Made by a program: the position numbers and the translations under genes. Shown here piece by piece: positions 8,019-24,341 of a DNA stretch of 60,091 bases (position 1 is the stretch's first letter; each line of letters opens with the position of its first letter). A model generated the notes under the pieces. It had not been told where the DNA came from and did no database searches. It worked only from the letters and a program-made list of their open reading frames with translations. Source of the DNA: a virus (lineage: Duplodnaviria > Caudoviricetes); IMG/VR virus record IMGVR_UViG_3300046095_000129, positions 1-60,091 of that record. One strand, given 5' to 3'.

Positions 8019-8047
8019 AGGCAGTACGTAATAGTGTACACTCCTTT

Positions 8048-8124
8048 TTGAGTGGCGGTAGTTTCCGTTGCTTCTCCTTGATAGGTATACCCTGTCTTTA
8101 CCCCCCGCACTGGGGGGTTTTTTT
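8048..8124 (+). ncRNA. Putative trans-acting antisense small RNA
   Basis: TACACT -10 at 8037-8042; hairpins AGUGGCGG/CCGUUGCU, GAUAGG/CCUGUC and CCCCCC/GGGGGG followed by U7; G-U pairs work only on the + strand; 8061-8080 is complementary to several gene starts. Confidence 0.7.
8101..8124 (+). terminator. Intrinsic terminator of the putative sRNA
   Basis: CCCCCC-GCACT-GGGGGG-TTTTTTT. Confidence 0.85.
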
Positions 8125-8133
8125 ATGGCTACT

Positions 8134-8149
8134 TGTCTAACATTAGACA
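8134..8149. promoter_or_regulatory. TGTC-N8-GACA operator-like palindrome, copy 1
   Basis: TGTCTAA-CA-TTAGACA perfect inverted repeat; related copies at 14319 and 23896. Confidence 0.5.
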
Positions 8150-8396
8150 TAGTATGGGGTGGATTTTTATAATTTTTGTGGGGGGTGGTGCTTTGTTTTG
8201 ATAGGGGGTGGGTGCTGTGTAGGTTGCGTGTTTTGCAGAAATGTGCATTTGTATATTTCGTAGAAATATGGGGTATGGCTATGGATTAGTGTTGTTGTAT
8301 GAGCGGTGCAGCTTGGCCCCAAAGGGGGCTGGGGGTACGGTGGGGTCTGAGACTACTGCATTTCTACTCTCCTGAGATTACTGCAAATACCCCTTA

Positions 8397-8434: not shown

Positions 8435-8457
8435 AGAGGGAGAATGGTTCTCCCTCT
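8435..8457. repeat. 23-bp palindrome copy 1
   Basis: AGAGGGAGAATGGTTCTCCCTCT. Confidence 0.9.
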
Positions 8458-8893: not shown

Positions 8894-8916
8894 AGAGGGA
8901 GAACAGTTCTCCCTCT
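8894..8916. repeat. 23-bp palindrome copy 2
   Basis: AGAGGGAGAACAGTTCTCCCTCT. Confidence 0.9.
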
Positions 8917-9172: not shown

Positions 9173-9195
9173 AGGGGGAGAACTGTTCTCCCCCT
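9173..9195. repeat. 23-bp palindrome copy 3
   Basis: AGGGGGAGAACTGTTCTCCCCCT. Confidence 0.9.
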
Positions 9196-9842: not shown

Positions 9843-9865
9843 AGCGGGAGAACGGTTCTCCCCCT
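9843..9865. repeat. 23-bp palindrome copy 4
   Basis: AGCGGGAGAACGGTTCTCCCCCT, just upstream of the RBS of ORF 9880. Confidence 0.9.
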
Positions 9866-9879
9866 AAAAAGGAGCCGAT

Positions 9880-10668
9880 ATGGTCGAATCTTACGCAGCG
9901 CTAACGCCAAAAGCGTTAGCAAACCACCTTGCCAAGCGCAAAAAACCCCTTGTGTTGGTGCAGGCGATCCAAGAGCGTGCTGCCCAACAACGTGCGTTCA
10001 AGCGCTCCGACACGGGCACTAGGCGAACGCACAAGGAACTGTGGGGCAACCTGCTGTTCCCCCTGCGTTATGAGCGCAACAACGTGAAGGCTGGCATCAA
10101 GTATGCCGGTGGCGAAGCAAGGGGTGAAGCAATGCGCAGTTATCTCAGTGTGCTGGAGGAACTGCTCTACCGGCTGAACATGCACGCCACAGCCCGTATC
10201 CTGACCCCGCGCCAACTGTGCAAGGAGCGCAACGACTCGGGCCGAGGCGCACACATACCCAATGCGGGAACCCATTGGTCTGATTGGGTTCCGCAGCACA
10301 TCAAACTGAGGGTGTGTGTCCTGTTCGACGCCATTCCCTATAAACAGCGTGCGAAACGCAAGCTACCTTTCCAGCGTGCCATACCCCCGCTGTTGTACAG
10401 CAGGCTGTACGCAGCCCTTGGCTTGCGGACGCAGGGGTTCCTGAGTGCAGCACAGCGCAAGCATGCCGTTGCGCCCACAGAGGAGACAGCAGCCACTGTT
10501 GCAGCCATACAACACGCGCTGGCTGTCCTGAGAGAGTGGCCCCGCAACACAGCCCTGCCCTACGCATGGCAGAGCCTTGCGGCAACGACCAGTATCAAAC
10601 AGAGGGAGAACGGTTCTCCCCCTGCTGAAAGCGGACGACCGCCGCTGAAAGCGGACGACCGCCGCTGA
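9880..10668 (+). CDS. Basic early hypothetical protein
   Basis: 262 aa, AAGGAG RBS; the C-terminus reads through palindrome 5 and the tandem repeats. Confidence 0.8.
   Translation: MVESYAALTPKALANHLAKRKKPLVLVQAIQERAAQQRAFKRSDTGTRRTHKELWGNLLFPLRYERNNVKAGIKYAGGEARGEAMRSYLSVLEELLYRLNMHATARILTPRQLCKERNDSGRGAHIPNAGTHWSDWVPQHIKLRVCVLFDAIPYKQRAKRKLPFQRAIPPLLYSRLYAALGLRTQGFLSAAQRKHAVAPTEETAATVAAIQHALAVLREWPRNTALPYAWQSLAATTSIKQRENGSPPAESGRPPLKADDRR
10601..10623. repeat. 23-bp palindrome copy 5
   Basis: AGAGGGAGAACGGTTCTCCCCCT. Confidence 0.9.
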
Positions 10669-10686
10669 AAGCGGACGACCGCTGAA
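10624..10686 (+). repeat. 20-bp tandem repeat, about 3 copies
   Basis: GCTGAAAGCGGACGACCGCC at 10624 and 10644, a 17-bp copy at 10664, then GCTGAA. Confidence 0.95.
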
Positions 10687-10724
10687 CAACGGGGGGGAAA
10701 CCCCCCATACCAAGGAGAAGTGAC

Positions 10725-11069
10725 ATGGGACTAGACATTCAGATATTGAGCGTACCTCGGGCAATGGCCTTGAAAGCCACCGATGTGCGGCTTGGCTCAC
10801 GCTACGACACGCACCCCCGATGGCAGCAAGTGGCCCACGAGCGCGACAACTGGGACTTGCACGCCTTGCTTGCTGCGCTCTATGCCGAGCGAGGCGGGAC
10901 GCAGGACGAGTTCAACAACACAACGGTGCGCCTGTACAAGCGCGACCTACGCCTGTTCCTTCAGACTTTTGAAGGAACTGTGGCCCCTGCCATTAGCCCA
11001 TCCACGGCAGCGCAGGTTATCGAACACATGAGAAAAGGGCGAGTTGTGTACGCCGAATCTAGTTTTTAA
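10725..11069 (+). CDS. Hypothetical protein (MGLD-start phage family)
   Basis: 114 aa, MGLDI...NWDLH...Y.ESSF pattern; strong RBS. Confidence 0.8.
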   Translation: MGLDIQILSVPRAMALKATDVRLGSRYDTHPRWQQVAHERDNWDLHALLAALYAERGGTQDEFNNTTVRLYKRDLRLFLQTFEGTVAPAISPSTAAQVIEHMRKGRVVYAESSF

Positions 11070-11081
11070 AAGGAGAGTGAG

Positions 11082-11264
11082 ATGAAGACAGTATCAATTG
11101 GCATATTCAACAAAGAGGATGTGTTCACAGCGGTGTGCACCCTGACCAACAACGGGGGGCACATACACCCCGTTGCGTTCGAAGCCCTCGTGGAGAGCAC
11201 AGCGCTGGCCTTGGCTATGCATCTGGGGCAAGAGAGAACCGTAATTATGGAGCAAGGAAAATGA
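11082..11264 (+). CDS. Hypothetical protein
   Basis: AAGGAG RBS, 60 aa. Confidence 0.7.
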   Translation: MKTVSIGIFNKEDVFTAVCTLTNNGGHIHPVAFEALVESTALALAMHLGQERTVIMEQGK

Positions 11265-11377
11265 AGGTGCTACGCAAACTGTTCACGGTCAAGTGCTGTG
11301 AATGCAATGAGGTATGTGTCTGGTGGTGGCAACACCGCTGTGACTTTTGTGATGTAAATGAAGGAGAACTGAAATGA
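11261..11377 (+). CDS. 38-aa Cys-rich protein
   Basis: MKVLRKLFTVKCCECNEVCVWWWQHRCDFCD with two CxxC motifs; ATGA overlaps on both sides. Confidence 0.6.
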   Translation: MKVLRKLFTVKCCECNEVCVWWWQHRCDFCDVNEGELK

Positions 11378-11556
11378 AACCAAACAATGTAAACGAAGCG
11401 CTGGACGGCGTGCATGCACGGCTGATCGCAGCAGGGGCTTATCTGGAGCGCTACTTGCTCAATCCGCAAGACTACTCGCCAGAGCATATCGAGGAAGTTA
11501 AAGACGCTGTGCTTGACGCGCACATGCTGGTGACTTGGATAAAGGACAACATCTGA
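11374..11556 (+). CDS. Hypothetical protein
   Basis: AAGGAG RBS, coupled to the upstream gene. Confidence 0.7.
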   Translation: MKPNNVNEALDGVHARLIAAGAYLERYLLNPQDYSPEHIEEVKDAVLDAHMLVTWIKDNI

Positions 11557-11614
11557 AGTAAGAAACCCGTTGCCGATGCGGTTCCATTGGTGTGTTAGTT
11601 ATCAAGGAAACAAA

Positions 11615-13225
11615 ATGAAAATCTATCTTAGTGATTGTGGAAGTGTGCTCAAGGCACAGATCGTGGACGCCAGCACGCTGGTGCAAGTCACGGGCACGCT
11701 GGACGGGGGCTACAGGGAACTGCGGCACTACATGCCAAAGCCTACGTTCTCCACCCCGGCGTATGGGCCAGAGCATGTACGCATGCTGAAGGCAAACAGC
11801 GGGGATGTCTACGGGCAGATGCTCAGTAGCATGGTGAACCAACTCACGCCGTCAGCAGCATGGCGTATGCGTTCGCTCTCCCGCCGTTGGGCAGACAGGG
11901 ACGACACCCGCTCTCCCACAGCGCACTGTCGTGGGGGCCGCTACCAACTGAGCAACATGGGTGTCTACCGGTTCAAGGCAATGAAAGAGTTGTACCGCGA
12001 ACTCAACGTGCATGTCAAGGCATCCATCCTAGGCGATGCGGATGCGCTAGTCGAGTTCGTTATGGAGCACGATGGGAACGACCTGATAGAAAGGATGTTC
12101 GGCAAGATAGTCGACTTCCTTGATGGACAGGTGGTCTTGGCAGACTGTGGTCACATCAGCCGTACGGATGACATCACAGATGTGCACCGCAGTTCAAGGC
12201 TGTTCAGCACCATGTGCATTGACTGCCGGGGCAACGATGCGGTGTACTGCGAGGATGCTGACGAGTACTACCTTGAGACGCATGCATACCGCCACAGTGA
12301 TGGCGAGTGGTATTCGTACGAAGAAGAGCGGGATGAGGAAGAAGACGAGGAGACTGCACACAACGGGCACTCCATGAGCTACTCCGCAGATGTCTTGCGG
12401 TATGCCTCTGCCGATGGGAGCATCCGCAGTTCCAAGTATGGTGACTTCACGATGGGCATTGAGTTGGAGATGGCTCCGGGGCGTGCGTCTAGGTATGATG
12501 CCATTGAGGATGTGCGGAGCCAGCTTGGGCATGACTACTGCATCATCAAGGACGATGGCAGCATCAGCGGGGTCAATGGCTTTGAGGTAGTGACAGCCCC
12601 CCGTGGTCTGAAGGAGCACATCACACGCTTCAAAGCATGGGATGTCAACAAGTCCTACCGTGCTTGGGATGTGGAGAAGTGCGGCACGCATGTGCACATC
12701 GACTCCCGTGCCTTCACTGAGTTGACTCTGGGCAAGTTCCTCATGTTCATCAACTCCAACAACAACGCCGACTTCATCCGCAATATAGCAGGCAGGCATC
12801 CGCTCAAGGACAGCCAAGCACGGGAGTACTGTGCCAATGAGGAGCAGGGCATCTTGCACAACCCCAAGCAGGCCATCCTTGGCAAGACGGCACAGCGCTA
12901 CTACATGGTGAACCTGAACAACTTGGCGTACGACGAGTCCCAACGCTTGGGGTTCAAGCGTACGTACACAGAGGGCAAGTACAACACGATAGAGCTTCGC
13001 ATCTTCCGCGCCACACTCAAGAAGGAGCGCTTGCTTGCACAGATAGAGTTCACCCACGCCTGTGTGCACTTCTGTCGCAGTGCGAGTTTCCGCGAACTCA
13101 ATGGCACAGAGTTCGTGTCATGGCTCAAGACGACCAACAACACCTACCCACACCTGTCCGATTGGTACGGCACACGCCGCCCCAAGCAGGTTCCCCAATC
13201 TCCCGCACTCGCAACAACTGAATAA
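11615..13225 (+). CDS. Putative amidoligase (COOH-NH2 ligase, Amidoligase_2-like) with N-terminal Cys-rich region
   Basis: GIELEM, KDDGSI, GFEVVTAP, CGTHVHI, RYYMVN and TIELRIF motifs occur in the order typical of the glutamine-synthetase-like amidoligase family. Confidence 0.85.
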   Translation: MKIYLSDCGSVLKAQIVDASTLVQVTGTLDGGYRELRHYMPKPTFSTPAYGPEHVRMLKANSGDVYGQMLSSMVNQLTPSAAWRMRSLSRRWADRDDTRSPTAHCRGGRYQLSNMGVYRFKAMKELYRELNVHVKASILGDADALVEFVMEHDGNDLIERMFGKIVDFLDGQVVLADCGHISRTDDITDVHRSSRLFSTMCIDCRGNDAVYCEDADEYYLETHAYRHSDGEWYSYEEERDEEEDEETAHNGHSMSYSADVLRYASADGSIRSSKYGDFTMGIELEMAPGRASRYDAIEDVRSQLGHDYCIIKDDGSISGVNGFEVVTAPRGLKEHITRFKAWDVNKSYRAWDVEKCGTHVHIDSRAFTELTLGKFLMFINSNNNADFIRNIAGRHPLKDSQAREYCANEEQGILHNPKQAILGKTAQRYYMVNLNNLAYDESQRLGFKRTYTEGKYNTIELRIFRATLKKERLLAQIEFTHACVHFCRSASFRELNGTEFVSWLKTTNNTYPHLSDWYGTRRPKQVPQSPALATTE

Positions 13226-13236
13226 GGATATCAATC

Positions 13237-14271
13237 ATGTGTCTCATCATCACTGGCAAGTCTGCCAAGATTCGCAGCACCCTGCTCAACACAGCCGGGT
13301 TGCTTGACACCATCTACACCTCCAACCCTGACGGGATTGGGCTGATGTACAACACCGCCAAGGGACTCAAGACCGTCAAGGTGTTGCCCAAGTCAGCAGC
13401 GGATGCACGCGCCATCATCAACAAGATACCCAAGGATGCCCGTGAGATGGCAATCCACTTCCGCTGGGCCACACACGGCAAGACAGACTTGCATAACTGT
13501 CACCCGTACGATGTCATACCGGGCTACGTTGCCATGATGCACAACGGCGTGCTGCACACCGGCAATGAGGCTGACAAGGACAAGTCAGACACATGGCACT
13601 TCATCCATGACTACCTGTCGGAGTCGGTGCACATGGCCCCTGAACTGGTGTTCGTTGATGGGTTCCTCGCCATGATCGCGGAGTTCATTGGAGACAATCG
13701 GTTTGTGTTTATGAATGGCGAGGGGCGCATCAGCCATGTCAACAAGGACTCAGGCATTGAGCACGATGGCATGTGGTTCAGCAACACCTACGCATGGAAC
13801 CCGGCACTGCTGATACCCACATACAGAGCACGCGCTGTGTCCTCACGCTACCTTGGGTCATGGAACGTGACCGACACAGACGAGGAAGACTATGGGTACT
13901 ACAGCCGCAGCTTCAACGCGCACAAGCCCATAGCGGCATCGAAGCCGCTCGTTACTGTGGAGGAGATCACCGCGCACCTTGAGTCATACGATGCGCCGGG
14001 TCTGTGTTACCTGCTAGAGGCGTTCCCTAGCACGACCGTGCACCTGCTGTGCAAGAACTTCATCCCAAGCCCCACCTCTGAGGCGTATCGGGATGAGATC
14101 AGCGCGCATGAGACGGCTGTGTACGACATGCTGCTGGAGCAGGACATGACGGGGTTGCTGACCTACATAGCGCACTCTGCGTCCTCCGCTGCCACAGTGG
14201 CGGATGTGATCTGTTACTACCTGAACTGGGAGAGATGCGTGAGCACCCGGCCCAGCGTAGCAGCAGCTTGA
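13237..14271 (+). CDS. Class-II (Ntn) glutamine amidotransferase
   Basis: N-terminal nucleophile MC, NPDGIG, IHFRWATHG, NCHPY, MMHNG, SDT. Confidence 0.9.
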   Translation: MCLIITGKSAKIRSTLLNTAGLLDTIYTSNPDGIGLMYNTAKGLKTVKVLPKSAADARAIINKIPKDAREMAIHFRWATHGKTDLHNCHPYDVIPGYVAMMHNGVLHTGNEADKDKSDTWHFIHDYLSESVHMAPELVFVDGFLAMIAEFIGDNRFVFMNGEGRISHVNKDSGIEHDGMWFSNTYAWNPALLIPTYRARAVSSRYLGSWNVTDTDEEDYGYYSRSFNAHKPIAASKPLVTVEEITAHLESYDAPGLCYLLEAFPSTTVHLLCKNFIPSPTSEAYRDEISAHETAVYDMLLEQDMTGLLTYIAHSASSAATVADVICYYLNWERCVSTRPSVAAA

Positions 14272-14277
14272 CACCCT

Positions 14278-14300
14278 GCCGGGGGAGACCCCGGCTTTTT
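14278..14300 (+). terminator. Intrinsic terminator
   Basis: GCCGGGG-GAGA-CCCCGGC-TTTTT just after the GATase stop. Confidence 0.85.
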
Positions 14301-14318
14301 ACGAAAGGAAAATAAGTT

Positions 14319-14358
14319 TGTCCAAGGCTTGACAAACCGTTTAGATATCGGATACGAT
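14319..14358 (+). promoter_or_regulatory. sigma70 promoter overlapped by TGTC-N8-GACA copy 2
   Basis: TTGACA 14329-14334, 18-bp spacer, TACGAT 14353-14358; TGTCCAAGGCTTGACA at 14319-14334. Confidence 0.7.
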
Positions 14359-14369
14359 AAACCCATAAC

Positions 14370-14392
14370 AGGTGGAGAACGGTTCTCCCCCT
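14370..14392. repeat. 23-bp palindrome copy 6
   Basis: AGGTGGAGAACGGTTCTCCCCCT just downstream of the predicted start site. Confidence 0.9.
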
Positions 14393-14410
14393 AACAATTT
14401 TGGAGAAGCA

Positions 14411-14617
14411 ATGAGTACCAATAAAACACCGTGGACTGAGGTTCTTAAACAATGGGAGCCTTCCGCTGGAAGCGAAGCGGCAACCGCCCCCACAATGGAG
14501 CAACAACTTGCCCCAGCAAGGGAGCAACGACTTGCTACGGCAAGCAACCTACTGATGTCCCTCAACGTGGTTGAGGCGCGTCTTTTGTACGATGAACTCA
14601 AGAAAGTTTTTAACTAA
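14411..14617 (+). CDS. Hypothetical protein
   Basis: GGAGAAGCA-ATG start at 14411. Confidence 0.75.
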   Translation: MSTNKTPWTEVLKQWEPSAGSEAATAPTMEQQLAPAREQRLATASNLLMSLNVVEARLLYDELKKVFN

Positions 14618-14625
14618 GGATTTAT

Positions 14626-15588
14626 ATGGCACACGCATTATCAATACACCAAAACGGGCAAGTCGAGTTTGCCTATCTTGAACAAGACGGCCTGCCTTGG
14701 CACGGCCTTGGTCAGCCGATGCCCGTGGGGGCAAGCATTGACGAGTGGCGCAGCAAGGCGGGTATGGACTGGCGCATCCAGCGCTCTGAGGTGCGGTACA
14801 ACACGAGCCGCACTGAGGAGGTGCTGATGAAGATGCCCGAGCAGCATGTGCTGTTCCGCTCTGACAACCACGAGGCGCTGGGGCTGGTATCCAAGAAGTA
14901 CCAAGTGGTACAGCCCAGTGAGGTGATCGAGTTCTTCCGAGACATCGCCAAGGCCGGGGGTCTGGAGTTGTCTGCGGCAGGGACGATCTATGGGGGCAAG
15001 CGCTTCTGGGCCACAGCCAAGATCGGCGAGGCAAGCCCGACCAGTATTAGAGACAAGATCAGTGGGTTCCTGCTCATCAGCACCAGCGCGGATGGCTCAC
15101 TGGCGACTGAGGTGAGGCGCACAACTGTACGTACGGTGTGCTCCAACACGCTGGCTATGGCGATGGCGGATGCTCATGCGGCTGTGAGAGTCACGCACAA
15201 GTCAGTGTTCGACCCCGCAGCCGTGAAGGAGTTCATGGGACTCAACGAGGCTGCATGGGCTGCGTTCAAGCATCAGGTGGTGCGGCTGGCTAACAAGCCT
15301 GTCGTCCTTGAAGAGGCAGAGCAGCTAACCGCCTTCATACTAGGTGGTGGAGAGAAAGTGCAGGCGACAGCCGGGTACAACAAGATACTCGACCTGTTCC
15401 AAGGCGAGGCCAAGGGGTCTAGTCTTGAGGGTGTGCAGGGCACAGCGTGGGGCTACATCAACGCAGTGACTGAGTACGCCGATTGGTTCTCACGGGCACG
15501 TAGCCAAGAGAACCGCTTCGTGTCCGCACAGTGGGGGCCGGGTGCTGACCTCAAGCAGCGTGCACTGGACGCTGTGTTAGCTGTGTGA
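14626..15588 (+). CDS. DUF932 family phage/plasmid protein
   Basis: MAH...PWHGLG, LGLVSKKYQVVQP, AGTIYGGKRFW, TVRTVCSNTL, GTAWGYINAVTEY. Confidence 0.9.
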   Translation: MAHALSIHQNGQVEFAYLEQDGLPWHGLGQPMPVGASIDEWRSKAGMDWRIQRSEVRYNTSRTEEVLMKMPEQHVLFRSDNHEALGLVSKKYQVVQPSEVIEFFRDIAKAGGLELSAAGTIYGGKRFWATAKIGEASPTSIRDKISGFLLISTSADGSLATEVRRTTVRTVCSNTLAMAMADAHAAVRVTHKSVFDPAAVKEFMGLNEAAWAAFKHQVVRLANKPVVLEEAEQLTAFILGGGEKVQATAGYNKILDLFQGEAKGSSLEGVQGTAWGYINAVTEYADWFSRARSQENRFVSAQWGPGADLKQRALDAVLAV

Positions 15589-15625
15589 TTAACCGGGGGC
15601 TTCGGCCCCCACAACAGGAGAAGCA

Positions 15626-15820
15626 ATGATTACATTTATAAAGAACTACTTTCGCAGACCCACGCCACTGGAGATGGTTGCTAGGGAGTTGGCTGTAGCC
15701 CACCTGTGCAAGCTGGAGGCAGAGACAGCGGTGGACTACGCGGTATCAGTGGTGCGTTACAACGACACACGCATCAAACGGCTAGAGCAACACATCAACA
15801 ACCACAAGGAACAATCATGA
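15626..15820 (+). CDS. Hypothetical protein
   Basis: AGGAGAAGCA-ATG; preceded by a UUCG hairpin. Confidence 0.75.
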   Translation: MITFIKNYFRRPTPLEMVARELAVAHLCKLEAETAVDYAVSVVRYNDTRIKRLEQHINNHKEQS

Positions 15821-16041
15821 GAACAGACAGCGCGGACAAAACAGAGCAGCCGGTTTACATCCTTAACGGGATAACACTGCTACCACATTACACCCTACCG
15901 TGTTTTGTGACGCCCGGCTTCAGCAGCACCACTCCTATGAAGCTGTGGACAGTGAACGAACTGCTGGACGAGGGCGCTGTCAAGAGCACTGCCTTCCTCT
16001 GGCCCCGGCACACCTTGGCAAGCGGAGGCTGGCATGGATGA
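15817..16041 (+). CDS. Hypothetical protein
   Basis: ATGA overlap and AAGGA RBS; start 15817. Confidence 0.65.
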   Translation: MRTDSADKTEQPVYILNGITLLPHYTLPCFVTPGFSSTTPMKLWTVNELLDEGAVKSTAFLWPRHTLASGGWHG

Positions 16042-16159
16042 TGGCGACTATGGTGGGATAGATGAGTTTATGTACTGGGTGACGCTTGTCATCCTGTTCT
16101 TGATGACGACTGTTTTTCTGGGCGCGGTGGCTGGACTTATGTATTGGGCAATGATATGA
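16034..16159 (+). CDS. 41-aa single-pass membrane protein (not in ORF track)
   Basis: GGAGG RBS; MDDGDYGGIDEFMYWVTLVILFLMTTVFLGAVAGLMYWAMI. Confidence 0.65.
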   Translation: MDDGDYGGIDEFMYWVTLVILFLMTTVFLGAVAGLMYWAMI

Positions 16160-16404
16160 ACACCGAAGAAGACGAATTCCGAAGGATCGAACGCGAGGCT
16201 CTGCGCCGAGCAGCGCAGGACGAGGACGACGACACTCAGGTCTACGTGAGTGAGTTCGCCCTGCCACAACTGAGAACCTTCTTGGACAAGTTGAAAGACC
16301 GAATCGTTAAGCGCTATCAAGGTAGCGATAAAGACCAAGACATTGCGTACGGCATGGAGATTGTCTATGTTGATCTGATCGACTTAATTGAGGGGAAGAA
16401 ATGA
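16156..16404 (+). CDS. Hypothetical acidic protein
   Basis: ATGA overlap (MNTEEDEF). Confidence 0.7.
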   Translation: MNTEEDEFRRIEREALRRAAQDEDDDTQVYVSEFALPQLRTFLDKLKDRIVKRYQGSDKDQDIAYGMEIVYVDLIDLIEGKK

Positions 16405-16622
16405 CTAAGCAAGAAATGTTGAAGGCACTAATTGAAGACCTGCGTTTAAATCATGAGTACTGTCCCAAAGAGGGCATCTTGCAGGCGGCAGATGAGTTGG
16501 AAAGAATACAGCAGGGGATTGAAACATTACACGCCATGTACGAACAAGCAAGCCGACAGCGGGATGAGTTGATGGATCAGCAACGAGCGCAGGTTGAGGC
16601 TATGCGAGGGAGGGTGCAATGA
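16401..16622 (+). CDS. Hypothetical coiled-coil protein
   Basis: Coupled by ATGA overlaps. Confidence 0.7.
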   Translation: MTKQEMLKALIEDLRLNHEYCPKEGILQAADELERIQQGIETLHAMYEQASRQRDELMDQQRAQVEAMRGRVQ

Positions 16623-16891
16623 AATACAACGCAGAACAGATTACCTATATGCTGGCTGAAGCCATAGACCAAAACCGTGAGTACAAATCATGGCACTGTA
16701 GTACTCAACACCTGATGGCTCTTGTTGAGAGGGTTGTTGCCGAGGAGCGTGAGGCGTGTGCAAAGGTGTGTGAAGACGAAGCATGGCGCTTAAAAAAGCT
16801 GGCTGTAGACACGAATAGCAGTAGCACCAACTCAAAAGCAATACAGGCAAGCAACGATACTGACGCCATCCGAGCAAGGGGAAACACATGA
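16619..16891 (+). CDS. Hypothetical protein (EREACAKVC...AIRARG module)
   Basis: Module common in proteobacterial phage small-gene clusters. Confidence 0.75.
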   Translation: MKYNAEQITYMLAEAIDQNREYKSWHCSTQHLMALVERVVAEEREACAKVCEDEAWRLKKLAVDTNSSSTNSKAIQASNDTDAIRARGNT

Positions 16892-17358
16892 CCAACAGAA
16901 AAATTATGCAGCAGGCGCTGGAGTGCATTGAGCGCCTCAACGCGCACGGCTGGATATTGGCAGACTTTGAGGATGAGGTTTATGCAGCCATCACCGCCTT
17001 GAAAGCCGCACTAGAGCAGCCAGAGCAGGAGCCTGTGGCGATAGTGACAAGTGAGACAGGCAACCCGGACATAACAATGTCTTGGTGGCATGAGCCTGCA
17101 TTGCCAATGGGCACAAAACTCTACACGCAACCACCCGCAGCACAGCCAGAGCCGCCACCCGAAAAGGAATGGGTTTACGGCACACCCCTGTTGGATGCCA
17201 TGACTCAGGACTATGTGCCAGCACAGCGCCCGTGGGTAGGGCTGACTGATGAGGAAATAAAAGAAATCGTTGGGCCTTATGGGGACACGCCTGTTAAGGG
17301 CTACACCCGCCAACTGTTTGACCAAATTGAAGCTAAGTTACGGGAGAAAAATCAATGA
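16888..17358 (+). CDS. Mosaic hypothetical protein (QEPVA and RPWVGLT modules)
   Basis: 156 aa, translationally coupled. Confidence 0.75.
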   Translation: MTNRKIMQQALECIERLNAHGWILADFEDEVYAAITALKAALEQPEQEPVAIVTSETGNPDITMSWWHEPALPMGTKLYTQPPAAQPEPPPEKEWVYGTPLLDAMTQDYVPAQRPWVGLTDEEIKEIVGPYGDTPVKGYTRQLFDQIEAKLREKNQ

Positions 17359-17519
17359 ACAACGAAACGCAAAGACTCATGGAAGCACTCATGTTGATCT
17401 ACGGCAGAGACTTGCAAGCCGCCACGATCACGGTGCTACTTAAAGACGGCGACACTGCTGTGCGCTTTATTACAAAGAGAAGAGCAAATGACTCAACCAA
17501 ACAAACAGCACATACATGA
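17355..17519 (+). CDS. 54-aa hypothetical protein (not in ORF track)
   Basis: GGAG RBS, ATGA overlap; MNNETQRLMEALMLIYG. Confidence 0.55.
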   Translation: MNNETQRLMEALMLIYGRDLQAATITVLLKDGDTAVRFITKRRANDSTKQTAHT

Positions 17520-17676
17520 GCGCCTTGGCATGTCTGTGGAGGAAGCACTCAACCGCCTGATCTGGTTCGGGCAGATCAGTCACAAGTACAAGGAAGAGTT
17601 TGGGGAGACGATGAACCCGAAACATCTTGAGGCCGTGCTTAATGCCACACCTCCGAAGGAAAAGAGCAATGACTAA
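17488..17676 (+). CDS. Hypothetical protein
   Basis: 62 aa within the coupled cluster. Confidence 0.65.
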   Translation: MTQPNKQHIHERLGMSVEEALNRLIWFGQISHKYKEEFGETMNPKHLEAVLNATPPKEKSND

Positions 17677-17920
17677 AGAAGAAATTCACAACATCTATTT
17701 GCACATGAGTGGCAAGGCTGAAGGCATCGCGGAAGCTACGGGGTCAGCAGACTTTCCTGTGCTGTTTGCCAATGCCATCCTTGAATATACCAAGCGTCCT
17801 TGGGTTGGTCTGACGCCAGAAGAGGTTTTGGATTTGTTTGATGTAAACAATGTCTATGGCAGTAAGTGGATTGAGTTCGCCAGAACAGTCGAAGCCGCCC
17901 TGAAAAAGAAGAACACATGA
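17669..17920 (+). CDS. Hypothetical protein with RPWVGLT module
   Basis: Start MTKEEIH at 17669 overlaps the upstream stop. Confidence 0.7.
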   Translation: MTKEEIHNIYLHMSGKAEGIAEATGSADFPVLFANAILEYTKRPWVGLTPEEVLDLFDVNNVYGSKWIEFARTVEAALKKKNT

Positions 17921-18126
17921 GATGCCCCATATGCAACGCACAGACTGACGTAAAAGACTCACGAGTAAGAAAGGAAACCAACAGTGTTATCAGAAAACGG
18001 AAATGCTTCAACGACCACATCTTCAAAACGGAAGAAAAAGCCAATCAACTTCTACGACCCATTCACGAGGGTAGACCCGAAGCTGCTGGAGCAGATGTAC
18101 CGAGCAGCACAAAGAGAAAAACTTAA
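17917..18126 (+). CDS. NrdR-N/Ogr-like zinc-ribbon protein
   Basis: MRCPIC...VKDSR...RKRKC..H.FKTEE resembles the NrdR zinc ribbon without the ATP cone. Confidence 0.7.
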   Translation: MRCPICNAQTDVKDSRVRKETNSVIRKRKCFNDHIFKTEEKANQLLRPIHEGRPEAAGADVPSSTKRKT

Positions 18127-18147
18127 ACAACTACCAGAAGCATTGCT

Positions 18148-18354
18148 ATGAAACGCTGGTCAGAACAAACTATTGAAGAACGCTTGGACAGTTCAATCAG
18201 CGTCTGGGAGAAAGCGCTAGCCAGAGTTGATCACGATGGCACGGCGCTGAATCACGACACGTATGACAAAGACCCCGTGCGCTTTCACACTGCAACGGAC
18301 TACCAAGCGTTTGTGCAAACACTTCATTCAATAAAAGATAGAGGTGTATGGTGA
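18148..18354 (+). CDS. Hypothetical protein
   Basis: 68 aa, weak RBS. Confidence 0.55.
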   Translation: MKRWSEQTIEERLDSSISVWEKALARVDHDGTALNHDTYDKDPVRFHTATDYQAFVQTLHSIKDRGVW

Positions 18355-18527
18355 GTGGCATACCCACATTCAGCACTTGGGACAGGGCAACGCTAGATCA
18401 GTTTGCGCTGGACGCATGCGTCAAGATGCAACAGCAGCAAGAAACGATTGAGCAGTTGACGCTGGATAAGAAGACCGCCCTTGAAGCGTACCGCAGGCTA
18501 ATAAAAGAGACTTCACATGACGCCTGA
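18348..18527 (+). CDS. 59-aa coiled-coil protein (not in ORF track)
   Basis: GAGG RBS; reads MVSGIPTFSTWDRATLDQFA; fills the gap before VRR-NUC. Confidence 0.6.
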   Translation: MVSGIPTFSTWDRATLDQFALDACVKMQQQQETIEQLTLDKKTALEAYRRLIKETSHDA

Positions 18528-18825
18528 AGCAAAAGTTAAAACGGCAATCAAGAAGCTGTTGGATGCCCATGAGGTGTACTACTTCATGCCAGCAGCCAAC
18601 GGATACGGACGCGCAGGGATACCCGACATCGTGTGCTGCATCAACGGGTGCTTCCTTGCGATTGAGTGCAAGGCAGGCAAGGGGAAAACAACAGCCCTGC
18701 AAGACAGGGAGTTGATAGCCATCCACAAGGCAGGAGGTAGCGCTGTGGTTATCAACGAGACATCCCTGCACACATTGCAGGGAATCATTACAGACATCAA
18801 ACAAAGGACAACAAAATGGACTTAG
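18517..18825 (+). CDS. VRR-NUC nuclease / putative Holliday-junction resolvase
   Basis: MTPEAKVK, AGIPDI, FLAIECKAG, TTALQ motifs. Confidence 0.9.
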   Translation: MTPEAKVKTAIKKLLDAHEVYYFMPAANGYGRAGIPDIVCCINGCFLAIECKAGKGKTTALQDRELIAIHKAGGSAVVINETSLHTLQGIITDIKQRTTKWT

Positions 18826-19103
18826 AGACTGAACGCATGCAAGCCATGCAGAATGAGATGAACGAGCGGCTTGAGCTTTTCTCGGCGGAAGAGAAAGTGC
18901 ATCTGGCAGAACTCATGCTTGTGTTAACCCGGTGCTACGGCCCTGATCCAAACTGCGCTGTGGTGCTGGCCTACAACAACGGCAAACTTTCAATCATGTC
19001 AATGAACAACACAGAGCTAGAAGCACACACGCTTTGCAAAGATGCAGCAAGCATCTTGGCTGACAGCCTAGGCAGCAACAACCAACCAAAGGACATACAT
19101 TGA
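18816..19103 (+). CDS. Hypothetical protein
   Basis: AAGGA RBS; coupled to polA. Confidence 0.7.
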   Translation: MDLETERMQAMQNEMNERLELFSAEEKVHLAELMLVLTRCYGPDPNCAVVLAYNNGKLSIMSMNNTELEAHTLCKDAASILADSLGSNNQPKDIH

Positions 19104-21067
19104 GCCAACCATACGACACCATCCTGACCATCGACTTTGAAACCCGATGGGACAAGGCCGACTACACCCTCTCCAAGATGACAACCGAGGAGTACATACG
19201 TGATACTAAATTCATTGCATTCGGAGCATGCATACATGAGTATGGAACTGATAGACCTACTCAGTGGTATGGAGGAGATGAGCTTCATCGAATCCTATCA
19301 ACATATGATTGGACGCGAACAGCAGTCCTTGCACATAACGCCCAATTTGATATCGCCATACTGGAATGGGTATACGGAGTCCACCCTTGTTTCATCTTCG
19401 ACACCCTGTCAATGGCGCGAGCTTTACGGGGCGTGGAGGTTGGCAATTCCCTCGCCAAACTTGCAAGCGATTTTGGCCTTCCCCCCAAAGGGACAGCCGT
19501 ATATTCGACGGATGGATTGGCCGTCCTTGAGCCTGAGACAGAAAGAGAACTTGCTGAGTATTGTAAGCACGACATATATCTCTGCGAACAAATATTCAAA
19601 AGACTCGCGGAAGGCTACCCTACAAAGGAACTACGACTTATCGACATGACTCTGCGGATGTTCACCAACCCCACGCTGGTGCTTGACCCGGACATGCTGG
19701 CAGATGCACTGCTGGATGAGAAGGAGCAGCGGGAGGCACTGCTGCTGCGGCTCAAGATTGACGAGTCGCAGTTGGCATCCAACCCACAGTTCGCCGCCGT
19801 ACTGAACGAGCTTGGTGTGCCCACGCCATACAAGAAGAGCAAGACCACAGGTGAGCAGACCTTGGCGCTGGCTAAGACAGACGCGCTGTTCCAAGCCATG
19901 CTCAACGGAGACAACGAGGAGGTGGCGCTGCTGTGTGAGGCTAGGCTGAAGGTGAAGTCCACAACGGAGCGCACACGGGCACAGCGTTTCCTTGAGATCA
20001 GCACACGGGGCACGCTACCTGTGCCACTGTCCTACTACGGAGCCTCAACGGGACGCTGGACAGCCGCAAGGGGGAGCGCCATCAACATGCAGAACCTCAA
20101 GCGGGGGAGCTTCCTGCGTAAGGCTATCATGGCCCCGGAGGGACATCAGTTGGTGGTGGGTGACCTGTCTCAGATTGAGCCACGGGTGCTGGCATGGCTG
20201 GCTGACTACGATGATCTGCTGCACATCTTCAACGCCGGGGGTGATCCATATGCTGCCTTCGGTGCACAGATGTTCAACATCCCCGGCTTGACCAAGGAGA
20301 GTCACCCTGACTTGAGGCAGTCAGCCAAGTCAGCGCTGTTGGGTGCGGGGTACGGGCTGGGTTGGGCCAGCTTTGCTGCACAACTGCTTGTTGGGTTCCT
20401 CGGTGCGCCACCTGTGCGCTACACCAAGGAGTTTGCCAAGCAGTTGGGGGTGACAAGGGAGTCCGTAACTGAGTTTGTTGAGTGGGAGGGCAACCTAGAG
20501 AAGATGAGGGCCGTGCCACACATCTGTACCGAGCCAGAGTTGCTGATACATTGTGTTGCAGCCAAAGCGATTATTGACAACTACCGCAAGACCGCCGCGC
20601 CGGTTGTGAAATTCTGGAACTTGTGTGGGGATTTGATACACCGCAGCCTGTTCAGCGGTAAGGAGTACACGCACAAGTGCCTGACCTTTAGCAAGGGACA
20701 GATAAAACTGCCCAGTGGGATGTGCTTGCTGTACCCCAACTTGCGGCGAGGAAAGGACGAGGAAGGAAGATTGCAGTGGACGTACGGCCTAGATGCGAGT
20801 AAGATATACGCTGGCAAGATAACGAACAACGTCACGCAGGGCGTAGCAAGATGCGTGATGACAGACGGGATGCTCCGCGTAGCAAAGAGATACCCCGTCA
20901 AAGGCACAGTACACGATGAGTTGATCGCCGTTGTACCGGATGCGGAGGTTGAAGAAGCTAAGACTTGGGTCTTGGAGCAAATGACTATGGAGCCACGGTA
21001 TCTGCCGGGGATTCCATTGAACGCTAACGGCGGCGCACACCGTAGGTATGGACTAGCCAAAGGGTAA
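19100..21067 (+). CDS. polA: Family A DNA polymerase with 3'-5' exonuclease
   Basis: ExoI IDFET, ExoII AHNAQFD, motif A DLSQIEPR, motif B RQSAKSALLGAGYG, motif C VHDEL. Confidence 0.95.
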   Translation: MSQPYDTILTIDFETRWDKADYTLSKMTTEEYIRDTKFIAFGACIHEYGTDRPTQWYGGDELHRILSTYDWTRTAVLAHNAQFDIAILEWVYGVHPCFIFDTLSMARALRGVEVGNSLAKLASDFGLPPKGTAVYSTDGLAVLEPETERELAEYCKHDIYLCEQIFKRLAEGYPTKELRLIDMTLRMFTNPTLVLDPDMLADALLDEKEQREALLLRLKIDESQLASNPQFAAVLNELGVPTPYKKSKTTGEQTLALAKTDALFQAMLNGDNEEVALLCEARLKVKSTTERTRAQRFLEISTRGTLPVPLSYYGASTGRWTAARGSAINMQNLKRGSFLRKAIMAPEGHQLVVGDLSQIEPRVLAWLADYDDLLHIFNAGGDPYAAFGAQMFNIPGLTKESHPDLRQSAKSALLGAGYGLGWASFAAQLLVGFLGAPPVRYTKEFAKQLGVTRESVTEFVEWEGNLEKMRAVPHICTEPELLIHCVAAKAIIDNYRKTAAPVVKFWNLCGDLIHRSLFSGKEYTHKCLTFSKGQIKLPSGMCLLYPNLRRGKDEEGRLQWTYGLDASKIYAGKITNNVTQGVARCVMTDGMLRVAKRYPVKGTVHDELIAVVPDAEVEEAKTWVLEQMTMEPRYLPGIPLNANGGAHRRYGLAKG

Positions 21068-21072
21068 TCACA

Positions 21073-21375
21073 TTGAAGATACCAAAGAAAATCAAGATAG
21101 GTCGACGATGGTACACCATCGAAGTTGTCGAGAAGATGCCCACAACAGGGCACATGGGGGAGATCGACTACCCCCCAAACCAGCACATCCGTGTTGGCTT
21201 GCATAGCAGCAGGACAGGCAAGAGTTTCAAGCAAGAAGAAGTTGCGGACACGTTCTGGCACGAAGTGGTGCACGCCATACTGCATGACATGGACAGCAGG
21301 CTGTACCGCAACGAGACATTCGTTGGTGCGTTTGCCGCCCGTCTAACCAAAGCAATCAACTCAGCGAGGTTCTAA
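21073..21375 (+). CDS. Small HExxH zincin-like protein
   Basis: MKIPKKIKIG...TFWHEVVHAIL...ETFV pattern. Confidence 0.7.
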   Translation: MKIPKKIKIGRRWYTIEVVEKMPTTGHMGEIDYPPNQHIRVGLHSSRTGKSFKQEEVADTFWHEVVHAILHDMDSRLYRNETFVGAFAARLTKAINSARF

Positions 21376-22041
21376 ATGACCAAGGTAGTATGGAGCCACT
21401 CATCCCTCAAAGACTTTGAGGGCTGCGCCCGTAGGTATCACGAAATCAAAGTTCTTAAAAAATACAAGTTTCAAGAAACAGACGCAACGCGATACGGCAC
21501 GGACTTGCACAAAGCGGCAGAAGACTACCTTGCTGATGGGGTGGTACTGCCATCCCGGTTTGCCTTTGTCAAGGACGTTCTGGATGTGCTCGACAAGAAG
21601 CCCGGACGCAAGCTGACGGAGCACAAGATGGCGCTGACAGAAAAGCTGCGTACCTGTGCGTGGGACGCGCCTGATGTGTGGGTGCGCGGCATAGCTGACT
21701 TGCTCATCATTGATGATGAGAACCTGACAGCGTGGGTGGTGGACTACAAGACGGGCAACAACAGATACCCTGACAGAGAACAGCTTGTGCTGATGTCACT
21801 GCTGGTGTTTGCCCACTTCCCCCACATCAGGCAGGTCAGGTCGGCCTTGCTGTTTGTTGTTAAGAACGACATGGTTAAGCACAACATGTCTGTCGATGAA
21901 ACCAAAGACGAGTGGCGGCGCTATCGTGAGCGTTCAGCACGCATTTCCGCATGCATTGACAGTGGCGTGTGGAACCCCAAACAAACACCACTATGCGGGT
22001 GGTGTGCAGTGAAGAGTTGTGAATTTAATCCCAAGCACTAG
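21376..22041 (+). CDS. Cas4/RecB-like PD-(D/E)XK exonuclease
   Basis: WSHSSL...C, GTDLH, RGIADL, VVDYKTG and C-terminal CGWC...C. Confidence 0.9.
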   Translation: MTKVVWSHSSLKDFEGCARRYHEIKVLKKYKFQETDATRYGTDLHKAAEDYLADGVVLPSRFAFVKDVLDVLDKKPGRKLTEHKMALTEKLRTCAWDAPDVWVRGIADLLIIDDENLTAWVVDYKTGNNRYPDREQLVLMSLLVFAHFPHIRQVRSALLFVVKNDMVKHNMSVDETKDEWRRYRERSARISACIDSGVWNPKQTPLCGWCAVKSCEFNPKH

Positions 22042-22050
22042 GAGAACAGC

Positions 22051-22287
22051 ATGACACAAGTCAACGGCAAGCGTGACTACAAACACGCATATGTTTTGCA
22101 AAAGAAAAGCGGAGAGACAAAAGACTTTCTTGAACGACAGAAGGCACGCCAAGCATACGATGCCAAAGGCATTGATCGAACGGGGAAAGACATCGACCAC
22201 ATCACACCGATACGCAAGGGGGGCAAGTCAACACCGGGCAACACCCGACTGCGTAGTCCCAAAGCAAATCAAAGCGACAACAAATAA
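22051..22287 (+). CDS. Small HNH-like protein
   Basis: DIDHITPIRKGG...N.R.....N. Confidence 0.75.
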   Translation: MTQVNGKRDYKHAYVLQKKSGETKDFLERQKARQAYDAKGIDRTGKDIDHITPIRKGGKSTPGNTRLRSPKANQSDNK

Positions 22288-22299
22288 CACGGAGAAGCA

Positions 22300-23880
22300 A
22301 TGGAAATCATAGAAAACAAAGCACTGTTACTACGAACTCGTGACCCCGGTAAATACGGCATCATCCCCAAGAGTCGAGTCGTTGAGCAGCACGAAGACGG
22401 GTCGGCCTCGGTAGCAGTTTACTGGGGGCTGGAAGAAGCAAAGGTGCTTAGAAACTTGGGCGTCAAAGATGTACCCTCGCCCATAACCAAGCGCTATCAC
22501 TGGCCCGGACGGTACATACCGATGGCGCACCAGATTGAGACAGCCGGGTTCCTGACCATGAACCGCAAGGCGTTTTGTTTTAGTGAGCCGGGTACGGGCA
22601 AGACCCTGAGTGCGCTGTGGGCCGCAGACTACTTGATGTCACAGGGCGTAGTGCGAAGGTGTCTGATACTGTGCCCCCTGTCCATCATGCACAGCGCGTG
22701 GTTGTCGGACATGACCAGCAGCATCATCCATCGTTCTGCCATAGTCGCCCACCATGCTCAAGCTAGTCGGCGCATTGAGATGGTGCAGCAGAACTACGAG
22801 TTTGTCATTACCAACTACGATGGGCTGAACCTGATTGCGGACGAAGTGCGTAACGATGGGCGGTTTGATTTGGTGATTGCGGATGAGGCCAACGCCTACA
22901 AGATGCCCACTACCAAAAGGTGGAAGTCGTTGCAGAAAGTTGTCACACCTGACACGTACCTGTGGATGATGACCGGCACACCCGCTGCACAGTCTCCCGT
23001 AGATGCGTACGGGCTTGCCAAGTTCGTTAACCCCAACGGTGTGCCGAAGTTCTACACAGCATGGCGGGATCAGGTGATGAACAAAATCACGATGTTCAAA
23101 TGGGCTCCCAAACCAAGTGCGCCTGAGTCTGTGTTTGCTGCCTTGCAGCCTGCGATACGCTTCACCAAAGCACAGTGCCTTGACCTGCCGCCTGTCATCA
23201 CAATGGTGCGCGAAGTGCCGCTGACCCCACAGCAAAACAAGTACTACGTGATGCTCAAGGAACAGATGCTGGTGCAAGCCGCAGGGGAGACTATCACGGC
23301 TGTGAACGCTGCTGCGGGTGTGAGCAAGCTGTTGCAGATCAGTTGCGGGGCTGCGTATACAGACACAAAGGAAGTGGTGGAGTTCGACTCATCCCCACGC
23401 CTTGCTGTGTTGGAGGAAATACTAGGAGAGACACAGCGCAAGGTCATCATCTTTGCCTTGTTTCGTAGCACCATCTCAGCGATACACGCACACCTGTTGA
23501 AGCGGCACATAGCAACCGAAATGATCCACGGCGATGTACCCCCCATCAAACGGGGAGACATCATCAGGCGCTTCCAAAACGAGCCTGAACCAAGGGTGTT
23601 GGTGATGCAGCCAGCAGCATCCGCACACGGCATCACACTGACCGCTGCCGACACGGTGGTGTTCTACGGCCCCCTGATGTCTGTGGAGCAGTACACCCAG
23701 TGCATTGCCAGAGCAGACCGCAAAGGGCAGGACTCAGACAAAGTTACGGTGGTGCACATTCAGGGATCGCCCATAGAAAGACGCATGTTTAAAGCCCTTG
23801 GAGAAAAAGTGAGCGACCACTCTCTACTAACCAAGCTGTTCGACATTGAAATTAAAACAGGAAAGGGGTTGCAAATGTAA
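22300..23880 (+). CDS. SNF2-like superfamily 2 helicase
   Basis: EPGTGKT, VIADEAN (motif II variant), MTGTP, HGITLT, QCIARADRKGQ. Confidence 0.9.
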   Translation: MEIIENKALLLRTRDPGKYGIIPKSRVVEQHEDGSASVAVYWGLEEAKVLRNLGVKDVPSPITKRYHWPGRYIPMAHQIETAGFLTMNRKAFCFSEPGTGKTLSALWAADYLMSQGVVRRCLILCPLSIMHSAWLSDMTSSIIHRSAIVAHHAQASRRIEMVQQNYEFVITNYDGLNLIADEVRNDGRFDLVIADEANAYKMPTTKRWKSLQKVVTPDTYLWMMTGTPAAQSPVDAYGLAKFVNPNGVPKFYTAWRDQVMNKITMFKWAPKPSAPESVFAALQPAIRFTKAQCLDLPPVITMVREVPLTPQQNKYYVMLKEQMLVQAAGETITAVNAAAGVSKLLQISCGAAYTDTKEVVEFDSSPRLAVLEEILGETQRKVIIFALFRSTISAIHAHLLKRHIATEMIHGDVPPIKRGDIIRRFQNEPEPRVLVMQPAASAHGITLTAADTVVFYGPLMSVEQYTQCIARADRKGQDSDKVTVVHIQGSPIERRMFKALGEKVSDHSLLTKLFDIEIKTGKGLQM

Positions 23881-23911
23881 AAAAAACTACTACACTGTCC
23901 AACCCTTGACA
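23869..23911 (+). promoter_or_regulatory. Putative sigma70 promoter with TGTC-N8-GACA copy 3
   Basis: TTGCAA-16 bp-TACACT; TGTCCAACCCTTGACA at 23896-23911. Confidence 0.5.
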
Positions 23912-23930
23912 AAACTACATGGAGAAGCAA

Positions 23931-24341
23931 ATGGAAACAGAAGTGATTGAGGTGCTGCCGCTTGATCGGCTTGCCAAAATCTACCGTAAGATGCGTTCCG
24001 CAATTGAGGCCTTGACGAAAGAGTATGACACTCAAGTCGAAGCCATCAAGGAGCAGCAGGAGGGCGTGAAGAACGCCATGAAAGATCAGATGAAGGCGCT
24101 GGGCGTCACATCTGTGAAAACAGCAGAGGGCACGGTCATACTCTCCGTGAAGACCCGTTACAACACGCAGGATTGGGACTCGTTCAAACGATTCATCATC
24201 GAGAACGAAGCCGTTGACTTGCTGGAGAAGCGGATCGCACAGAGCAACATGGCGCAATTCTTGACAGAAAACCCCGGACTCGTACCTCCGGGACTCAACT
24301 CATCGTCTGAGTATGACGTAAGCGTACGCAAACCAACTTAA
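23931..24341 (+). CDS. Conserved coiled-coil replication-module protein
   Basis: GGAGAAGCAA-ATG start at 23931. Confidence 0.8.
   Translation: METEVIEVLPLDRLAKIYRKMRSAIEALTKEYDTQVEAIKEQQEGVKNAMKDQMKALGVTSVKTAEGTVILSVKTRYNTQDWDSFKRFIIENEAVDLLEKRIAQSNMAQFLTENPGLVPPGLNSSSEYDVSVRKPT

Follow-up and report, generated by a model that had tools for sequence, protein, structure and literature searches.

In the literature covered by our limited search, phage-encoded small RNAs (sRNAs) were described as cis-antisense RNAs, as immunity factors of a single operon or as regulators of host genes, and we found none that was presented as controlling its phage's own early-gene set through a shared start tag. 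The sar RNA of P22 is a small, terminator-bearing RNA that is the exact complement of a ribosome binding site (RBS)-like sequence on the opposite strand, and the c4 RNA of P1/P7, an immunity function confined to a single operon, is released by processing from that operon's own leader. According to a review (PMC12197685), c4 pairs in trans around an RBS and blocks translation, and the specificities of RNA and target co-evolve. In T4 (PMC3014915), early intergenic start regions are cleaved by RegB at GGAG, with GG*AGRAYARAA as the extended consensus, and a further protein, RegA, acts as a repressor at the start regions of about 30 mRNAs. Here, we describe two elements of the virus record IMGVR_UViG_3300046095_000129, which was analyzed over its whole length of 60,091 bp and is called the window below: a 9-mer, GGAGAAGCA, that tags the translation starts of some early genes, and a candidate sRNA at 8050–8125 whose seed is complementary to this tag. 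On the sequence evidence set out below, we think it probable, with real room for doubt, that this phage-encoded sRNA represses the tagged early genes at translation initiation.

Counting both strands, the 9-mer occurred five times in the window, compared to 0.49 copies expected, and none of 100 dinucleotide-preserving shuffles held five or more. Four of the copies were on the plus strand, immediately 5' of the ATGs at 14411, 15626, 22300 and, with one extra A, 23931 (Table 1). The fifth, on the minus strand (8077..8069), was not followed by an ATG and is the complement of the candidate sRNA seed. A first-pass annotation of this DNA, from which the fifth copy is absent, had listed the exact tags at 14402, 15617, 22291 and 23921, a wobble variant at 10711 and shorter AGGAGAAC forms at 11362 and 22040, the latter two lying 5' of the starts 11374 and 22051; all of these positions were confirmed, as was its observation that the two best matches, at the starts ATGGAAATC (22300) and ATGGAAACA (23931), are identical into the coding sequence. 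Outside a core of 9 to 13 nucleotides (nt), the five tag sites had no flanking similarity.

To compare early and late genes, we used 34 early and 41 late starts that had been curated by hand from lists of open reading frames (ORFs) and Shine-Dalgarno (SD) energies, without a gene caller. The 9-mer was absent from all 41 late starts, in agreement with the earlier claim that the signature is limited to the early arm, and the late RBSs at 755, 1373 and 57145 did lack the tag extension, as had been reported. A further 12 or more early genes with independent initiation had different SD and spacer sequences; the tag is the mark of an early-gene subset, not a general early RBS.

Table 1. Positions of the start tags, the candidate sRNA and the surrounding features in the window
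Feature	Position	Strand	Details
Candidate small RNA, ~76 nt	8050..8125	+	From fold, terminator scan and homologues
Stem-loop 1 (SL1)	8050-8058 with 8065-8073	+	Predicted fold
Unpaired CUCCUU	8074-8079	+	Predicted fold
Stem-loop 2 (SL2)	8080-8085 with 8091-8096	+	Predicted fold; followed by UUU
Terminator stem	8100-8106 with 8112-8118	+	U7 run at 8119-8125
Seed TTGCTTCTCCTTG	8068..8080	+	Includes the reverse complement of GGAGAAGCA (8069-8077)
-10-like hexamer TACACT	8037..8042	+	First paired SL1 base 7 nt further 3'
Main early promoter-like site TAGACA-18-TATAAT (11 of 12)	8144..8173	+	Just downstream of the sRNA terminator, same direction
Wobble variant CAAGGAGAAGTGAC	10711..10724	+	ATG 10725, ORF of 114 amino acids (aa); directly 3' of hairpin ggggggaaacccccc
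Tag GGAGAAGCA + ATG	14402..14413	+	68-aa early ORF 14411-14617
Tag AGGAGAAGCA + ATG	15616..15628	+	64-aa early ORF 15626-15820; directly 3' of GC hairpin gggggcttcggccccc
Tag GGAGAAGCA + ATGGAAAT	22291..22307	+	SNF2-type helicase gene 22300-23880
Tag GGAGAAGCAA + ATGGAAAC	23921..23938	+	136-aa ORF 23931-24341; weak Gp157 / Pam3 gp33-like matches
Early/replication arm	about 8485-28994	+	Amidoligase-like, glutamine amidotransferase-like, DUF932 protein, DNA polymerase A, exonuclease, SNF2-type helicase, primase
Late arm (remaining genes)		-	Large terminase 5918-7462; portal 3371-5905; tail-like genes; 2683-aa LPD38-domain protein
Whole virus record	60,091 bp		Identical to the window

The fifth copy of the 9-mer lies in a region antisense to the late arm, with no plus-strand gene upstream, and the plus strand at 8069–8077 reads TGCTTCTCC. 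This sequence belongs to a compact unit in which two predicted stem-loops, separated by the unpaired CUCCUU, are followed by a Rho-independent terminator. The terminator scan listed 8100–8118 with its T7 run for the plus strand only, and across 47 homologues the terminator kept its position with compensatory sequence change, which is what would be expected of an independent transcription unit. These homologues were drawn from 80 loci, which gave 57 distinct upstream sequences, or 58 with that of the window; eight in which the upstream part was incomplete were dropped, the remaining 50 yielded 48 distinct RNA segments, and one segment with a long 5' insertion (L190) was also dropped before alignment. 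The 13-nt seed (TTGCTTCTCCTTG/UUGCUUCUCCUUG) was invariant in 47 of 47 distinct homologues, in an alignment with a mean column identity of 62% and with insertions and deletions in the flanks. In the predicted folds, the seed is partly single-stranded, with CUCCUU free and UUGCU inside a G.U-rich stem.

Several features of the homologues pointed to an RNA gene on the plus strand. The plus strand folded more stably than its complement in 46 of the 47, by a mean of 7.7 kcal/mol (single-sequence folds), and the predicted helices held 251 G.U pairs on the plus strand versus 20 on the minus strand. Within SL1 and the terminator core, 99.7% of the alignment cells were paired, compared to 40–58% when the partner was slid by one to three columns; 10 cells showed double changes, a count that none of 500 shuffles reached, and these were confined to two of the 13 pairs. 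SL2 and the outer part of the terminator were too variable for MAFFT alignment and formed in every single-sequence fold. A covariance model (R1) built from the 47 sequences recovered five homologues on which it had not been trained, in more distant genomes (E values from 1e-7 to 5e-5). It matched only one of 28 helicase-bearing contigs, most of which were fragments and thus uninformative on absence. An Rfam scan of the whole window gave 0 matches at gathering score. The sub-threshold matches to the 8050–8125 unit, of which the best scored 22.5 bits versus 39, were to unrelated sRNA families and rested largely on the terminator; weak ones included anti-hemB (21.9 bits versus a gathering score of 49.5) and a Betaproteobacteria toxic sRNA (15.5 versus 50).

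On the minus strand, the seed complement of many relatives reads AAGGAGAAGCAATG, which resembles a perfect RBS with an ATG. The triplet that follows the seed complement is ACG in the clade of the window and in the G001, G005, G013 and G016 types, and ACA or ACT in others. With these triplets in place of ATG, the conservation of the seed is not that of a minus-strand start site, and the seed complement would appear to look like a start region because it is complementary to start regions; the RNA G opposite the U of AUG makes a wobble pair. The first late gene, which has a weak match to a terminase small subunit (phrog_51, E value 9e-4), most likely starts at ATG 8018, and its relatives match from this ATG only. 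No SD precedes ATG 8018 in the window or in relatives, and in many relatives a possible short upstream ORF starts at the seed complement. A longer minus-strand ORF, 7419–8150, was considered as the true first late gene, and its first 44 codons were rejected, as relatives differ there by indels whose lengths are not divisible by three, and the terminator and the promoter -35 fall in the same stretch.

We then computed duplex energies from the 27-nt seed region 8058–8084, together with contiguous helices containing no more than two G.U pairs. Long-window RNAduplex scans were set aside because their energies were inflated by large interior loops, and the shuffle numbers of a permissive helix scan, which returned many worthless G.U-rich helices, were not used. 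After the self-complement, the strongest duplexes in the genome included those at the starts 22300 (-29.4 kcal/mol), 23931 (-29.3 kcal/mol) and 10725 (-28.3 kcal/mol), and the duplexes at the tagged starts 15626 (-24.0 kcal/mol) and 14411 (-21.5 kcal/mol) were weaker. The best site outside the self-complement, 22291–22307, would form 17 contiguous base pairs, two of them G.U, with sRNA positions 8061–8077, and 10711–10724 would form 14 with positions 8067–8080, both of its differences from the exact tag being compatible with G.U pairing. For 15616–15628 and 14402–14413, 13 and 12 contiguous base pairs were predicted, each with one G.U, and for the 23921 site 10 base pairs, a 1-nt bulge and 7 further base pairs. 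Start regions at or below -21 kcal/mol numbered 6 of 34 among early genes versus 0 of 41 among late genes (Fisher P = 0.0067), the sixth being 16619, through a looped duplex.

When the seed flanks were shuffled with CTCCTT kept, the mean number of such start regions fell to 0.88, and six were found with none of 300 shuffled seeds. Likewise, the top five energies summed to -133.2 kcal/mol for the actual seed and to -94.1 ± 7.8 kcal/mol for the flank-shuffled ones. As the shuffled-flank seeds fell short, the complementarity goes well beyond generic SD pairing, and it exceeds chance at several mRNA start regions. Specifically, five early mRNAs (10725, 14411, 15626, 22300 and 23931) are complementary, over SD, spacer and AUG, to the seed UUGCUUCUCCUUG, which in the clade of the window is extended on its 5' side by GUUUCCG; for two of these mRNAs, the complementarity covers codons 2 and 3 as well. 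The GUUUCCG flank is unlike that of all other clades and matches the AUGGAAA(U/C) of the helicase gene and the gene that follows it. The first-pass annotation had taken identity beyond the SD to imply a common trans-acting reader. This proposal is supported by the sequence evidence and has a concrete candidate in the conserved RNA at 8050–8125, which is complementary to SD, spacer and AUG of the tagged genes and is presumably expressed and repressive.

The same arrangement was found in uncultured relatives. Long contigs had a recurring layout of one late-strand 9-mer, the seed complement, and several early-strand copies; with the seed complement excluded, the counts of early-strand versus other copies were 8/0 (G002), 4/0 (G006), 4/0 (G008), 5/1 (G009), 6/0 (G010) and 4/0 (G011), compared to 0–1 per genome for a backward-read 9-mer control. 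G002 is a complete 62-kb genome with terminal repeats, in which all eight tag sites are at gene starts and four of the eight read AAGGAGAAGCAAATG, a 15-nt match to its own seed. Across 454,776 bases of sequence around the helicase gene, in 27 loci of at least 12 kb each, we counted 46 distinct plus-strand sites and no minus-strand site, and a start codon followed within 0–2 bases at 42 of the 46. Tagged genes varied between relatives, with the helicase gene and the following gene the most constant. Only 0–1 tags were present in the initial 3.8 kb of the relatives' early arms, a stretch that was therefore of little use for co-variation. Four cultured distant relatives had no copy of the 9-mer.

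The first-pass annotation had suggested a check, namely whether a different seed goes with a correspondingly different motif in relatives, and the outcome was mostly, though not uniformly, positive. Seeds of the form ...C(A/G)UUGC (the window, G008, G009, G010 and G011) went with 13 GCAATG and 4 GCAAATG targets, and those of the form ...C(A/G)UUUGC (G002 and G016) with 10 GCAAATG and 1 GCAATG targets. This association of UU or UUU in the seed with AA or AAA in the target (Fisher P = 0.0013) is uncorrected for shared ancestry, and the count leaves out sites with other spacers and draws on few genomes with both loci and on partly orthologous sites. Furthermore, a G>A change in the G013 seed was matched by a C>U change at the helicase start, giving 15 contiguous base pairs. 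Two relatives, G001 and G002, did not fit cleanly, as detailed below.

In the mechanism that we propose, the CUCCUU exposed between the two stem-loops would nucleate on the SD, and the duplex would then grow to cover the AUG as the 3' arm of SL1, which is rich in G.U and only weakly paired, is drawn into it. Such pairing would block 30S binding and would probably speed mRNA decay. As the main early promoter-like site follows shortly downstream of the unit, in the same direction, the RNA would probably be made early by the host polymerase. Building up together with the early transcripts, it would lower the expression of three small ORFs, the helicase gene and the gene next to the latter, and any gene with the tag would join the repressed set. 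The first-pass annotation had also expected repression to be polar, through gene clusters coupled to the tagged genes. This was not supported, since the next genes lie 8–50 nt downstream, have their own SD and do not overlap the tagged genes; polarity through Rho or mRNA decay is possible.

A candidate promoter for the RNA is the -10-like hexamer listed in Table 1, which in relatives reads TACAAT, TATACT, TATATT or TATAGT, all of the form TAnAnT, with SL1 beginning 7–8 nt after it. The hexamer is part of a near-palindromic core, GTGTACAC (8033–8042), that holds -10-like hexamers on both strands with a 2-bp overlap, one directed toward the sRNA and the other toward the first late gene. The core may represent back-to-back, mutually exclusive promoters, and given the overlap of the putative sRNA promoter with the late-gene -10-like box, RNA synthesis and the late start might exclude each other. 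On the other side of the unit, the main early promoter-like site has its -35 within an inverted repeat, TGTCTAACATTAGACA (8135–8150), which is conserved in relatives as TGTC(C/A/T)AAC(G/A)TT(T/G/A)GACA and is operator-like. The 300-nt leader between this site and the first early gene contains G-rich direct repeats, GGGGGGTGGTGC / GGGGGTGGGTGC, at 8175–8215, and a second promoter-like sequence, TGGTATAAT, was noted near 8397–8405.

A number of observations weigh against repression by this sRNA. Of the seed, half (UUGCU) is predicted to be paired within SL1. The putative sRNA promoter is weak as a sigma-70 site, lacks a good -35 in the clade of the window and was omitted by the consensus scan, and the only RNA run that we found consisted of short contigs of relatives, which are uninformative on 8050–8125 and speak neither for nor against expression. 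An internally looped duplex inside a gene, at 17712, ties with the strongest start-region duplexes at -29.3 kcal/mol. Among 38 distinct contexts of the helicase start in relatives, 11 had the exact tag, 13 had related variants and 14 had no related motif. Two genomes with an sRNA homologue carried no exact tag in the early arm, namely G001 and G012, the latter with a contig that includes only ~11 kb of the early arm. The helicase start region of G002 has GUA, whose U opposite the seed G makes a wobble pair and is not compensatory, and the variation at the 3' end of the seed (UUG, UUC, UCC, CCU) is not visibly mirrored by the targets. Some of the co-variation would be expected, too, if the seed complement were simply another copy of the family's RBS consensus.

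This last point leads to an alternative that we consider unlikely and that has to be weighed with care, namely that the tag is a clade-specific cassette boundary or preferred early RBS with no reader in trans, kept uniform by cassette recombination or by selection for initiation efficiency, the RNA being unrelated or only cis-antisense to the leader of the first late gene. It would account for the occurrence of the tag on non-orthologous genes across relatives, often right after a terminator-like hairpin and T-run, for the loss of the tag at orthologous starts in many relatives, and for the RBS-like seed complement AAGGAGAAGCAATG upstream of a late gene whose ATG at 8018 has no SD of its own. 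It leaves unexplained the 13 invariant non-coding nt in 47 homologues, the folding preference and G.U bias of the plus strand, and the match of the window-clade seed flank to codons 2 and 3 of two targets. Nor does it agree with the ACG, ACA or ACT that stands in several clades where the minus strand should have ATG, or with the late genes, which need high expression and never carry the tag. The AAGCA spacer, which lies outside canonical SD/anti-SD pairing, likewise counts against it.

An improbable alternative is that a phage or host protein reads the tag, either a repressor of the RegA kind or an endoribonuclease resembling RegB, with extended GGAG sites of early start regions as its substrate. 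T4 offers a precedent (PMC3014915), and most early ORFs of the window have no assigned function. Against this, the tag has G and C where the RegB consensus has Y and A at positions 7 and 8, no RegA or RegB family was found among the 24 early-arm ORFs searched with Pfam or those scanned with PHROGs, and the conserved complementary RNA would be unexplained. Coincidence, with the copies arising from purine-rich SD and spacer composition and the complement at 8069–8077 from chance, would suit the modest excess of the 9-mer when one mismatch is allowed (27 sites versus 16.1 expected, with 2 of 100 shuffles reaching 27) and is scarcely credible in view of the exact copies, which no shuffle reproduced, the layout shared by six relatives with their near-empty backward controls, and the 300 shuffled-flank seeds, none of which matched as well.

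The surroundings of the tag sites contained further recurrent elements. GC-rich hairpins with no T-run, at 10690–10705 (ggggggaaacccccc) and 15596–15612 (gggggcttcggccccc), end 4–6 nt 5' of two tagged SDs; in relatives, several tags come after a hairpin with a T-run, and the tagged gene is often the first of its unit. In the window, the 14411 ORF is the first gene 3' of a terminator (14278–14295), a promoter-like site (14329–14358) and a 23-bp palindrome (14370–14392). This near-perfect palindrome, AG(A/G)GGGAGAAC-N-GTTCTCCC(C/T)CT, is present in six copies, the others being at 8435–8457, 8894–8916, 9173–9195, 9843–9865 and 10601–10623. Most copies are 14–30 nt 5' of early starts, and one is inside the 3' end of gene 9880–10668, where it is directly followed by three tandem copies of a 20-nt unit, GCTGAAAGCGGACGACCGCC (about 10624–10683). 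The palindrome arms contain GGAGAA / TTCTCC, and the core was found in 46 IMG/VR stretches, often several times per contig; the element might act as an RNA hairpin, or as an operator to which a dimeric regulator binds. We also considered whether the tag pairs with the right arm (TTCTCC) and rejected this, as it would involve only 6 bp and the arm is already part of a far stronger hairpin.

With regard to the genome as a whole, neither megablast nor blastn found close relatives among sequenced phages, and tblastn with the helicase gave only matches of 26–40% identity, the best (37–40%) being to Pseudomonas phage Rollin, Acinetobacter phage Effie, Rhizobium phages and Xanthomonas Xp15. Uncultured relatives were numerous in IMG/VR, with 416 helicase-bearing stretches and 308 stretches with a relative of the first late gene. 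We found 23 DNA sequencing runs containing the sequence, labelled as freshwater, lake-water or sediment metagenomes. A host search found a helicase relative in only two short contigs, from metagenome-assembled genomes labelled 'Gammaproteobacteria bacterium'. A transfer RNA scan of the window returned nothing. The cluster at 11615–15588, with its amidoligase-like, glutamine amidotransferase-like and DUF932 genes, presumably resembles gene sets that are associated with DNA base modification in other phages. The late arm ends, convergently with the early arm, in the 2683-aa ORF (28927–36978, minus strand), whose sole family match was an LPD38 domain near the C terminus.

If sRNA-mediated repression is correct, a phage sRNA would govern dispersed early and replication genes of its own phage via a shared start tag, as an RNA equivalent of the RegA/RegB early shut-off of T4. 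More tentatively, and rating it as somewhat short of an even chance, we propose an RNA-based temporal programme in a phage lineage that appears to be virulent and is widespread in lakes. In such a programme, a single RNA with an anti-SD seed would act through a portable tag, AAGGAGAAGCA(A)AUG, that enrols early cassettes, tag and seed would co-evolve over hundreds of relatives, and the sRNA promoter would stand back to back with the late -10-like box. The tag may also make it possible to recognize, from sequence, one timing class of genes in uncultured phage genomes. The seed and its five targets are defined to the base, and the hundreds of natural variants are ready-made compensatory pairs.

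Compared with described systems, the locus shares with T4 RegB/S1 and RegA an extended signature at early starts, absent from late genes, and the proposed shut-off by a phage factor, and it differs in that the readers there are proteins, while the candidate reader here is an RNA, and in that the signature is unlike GG*AGRAYARAA. With P22 sar and cis-antisense RNAs it has in common a terminator-bearing RNA complementary to an opposite-strand RBS-like sequence; in the clade of the window, however, the opposite strand has no ATG and may lie outside the late mRNA, and the predicted targets are 2.6–16 kb away. In the order of its parts (5' seed, internal hairpin, U-rich linker, and terminator with a long U tail), and in the predicted pairing over SD and start codon, the RNA is like Hfq-type sRNAs with pyrimidine-rich anti-SD seeds, from which it is set apart by being phage encoded, by having the phage's own early genes as predicted targets and by belonging to no Rfam family at gathering score. 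The closest in working, along with bacterial anti-SD sRNAs, is c4 of P1/P7, through occlusion of the RBS in trans. Unlike c4, which comes from its own operon leader, the 8050–8125 unit is separate, has its own terminator and ends 5' of the early promoter, with no indication of lysogeny, and its four to eight dispersed early and replication targets would belong to several transcription units downstream.

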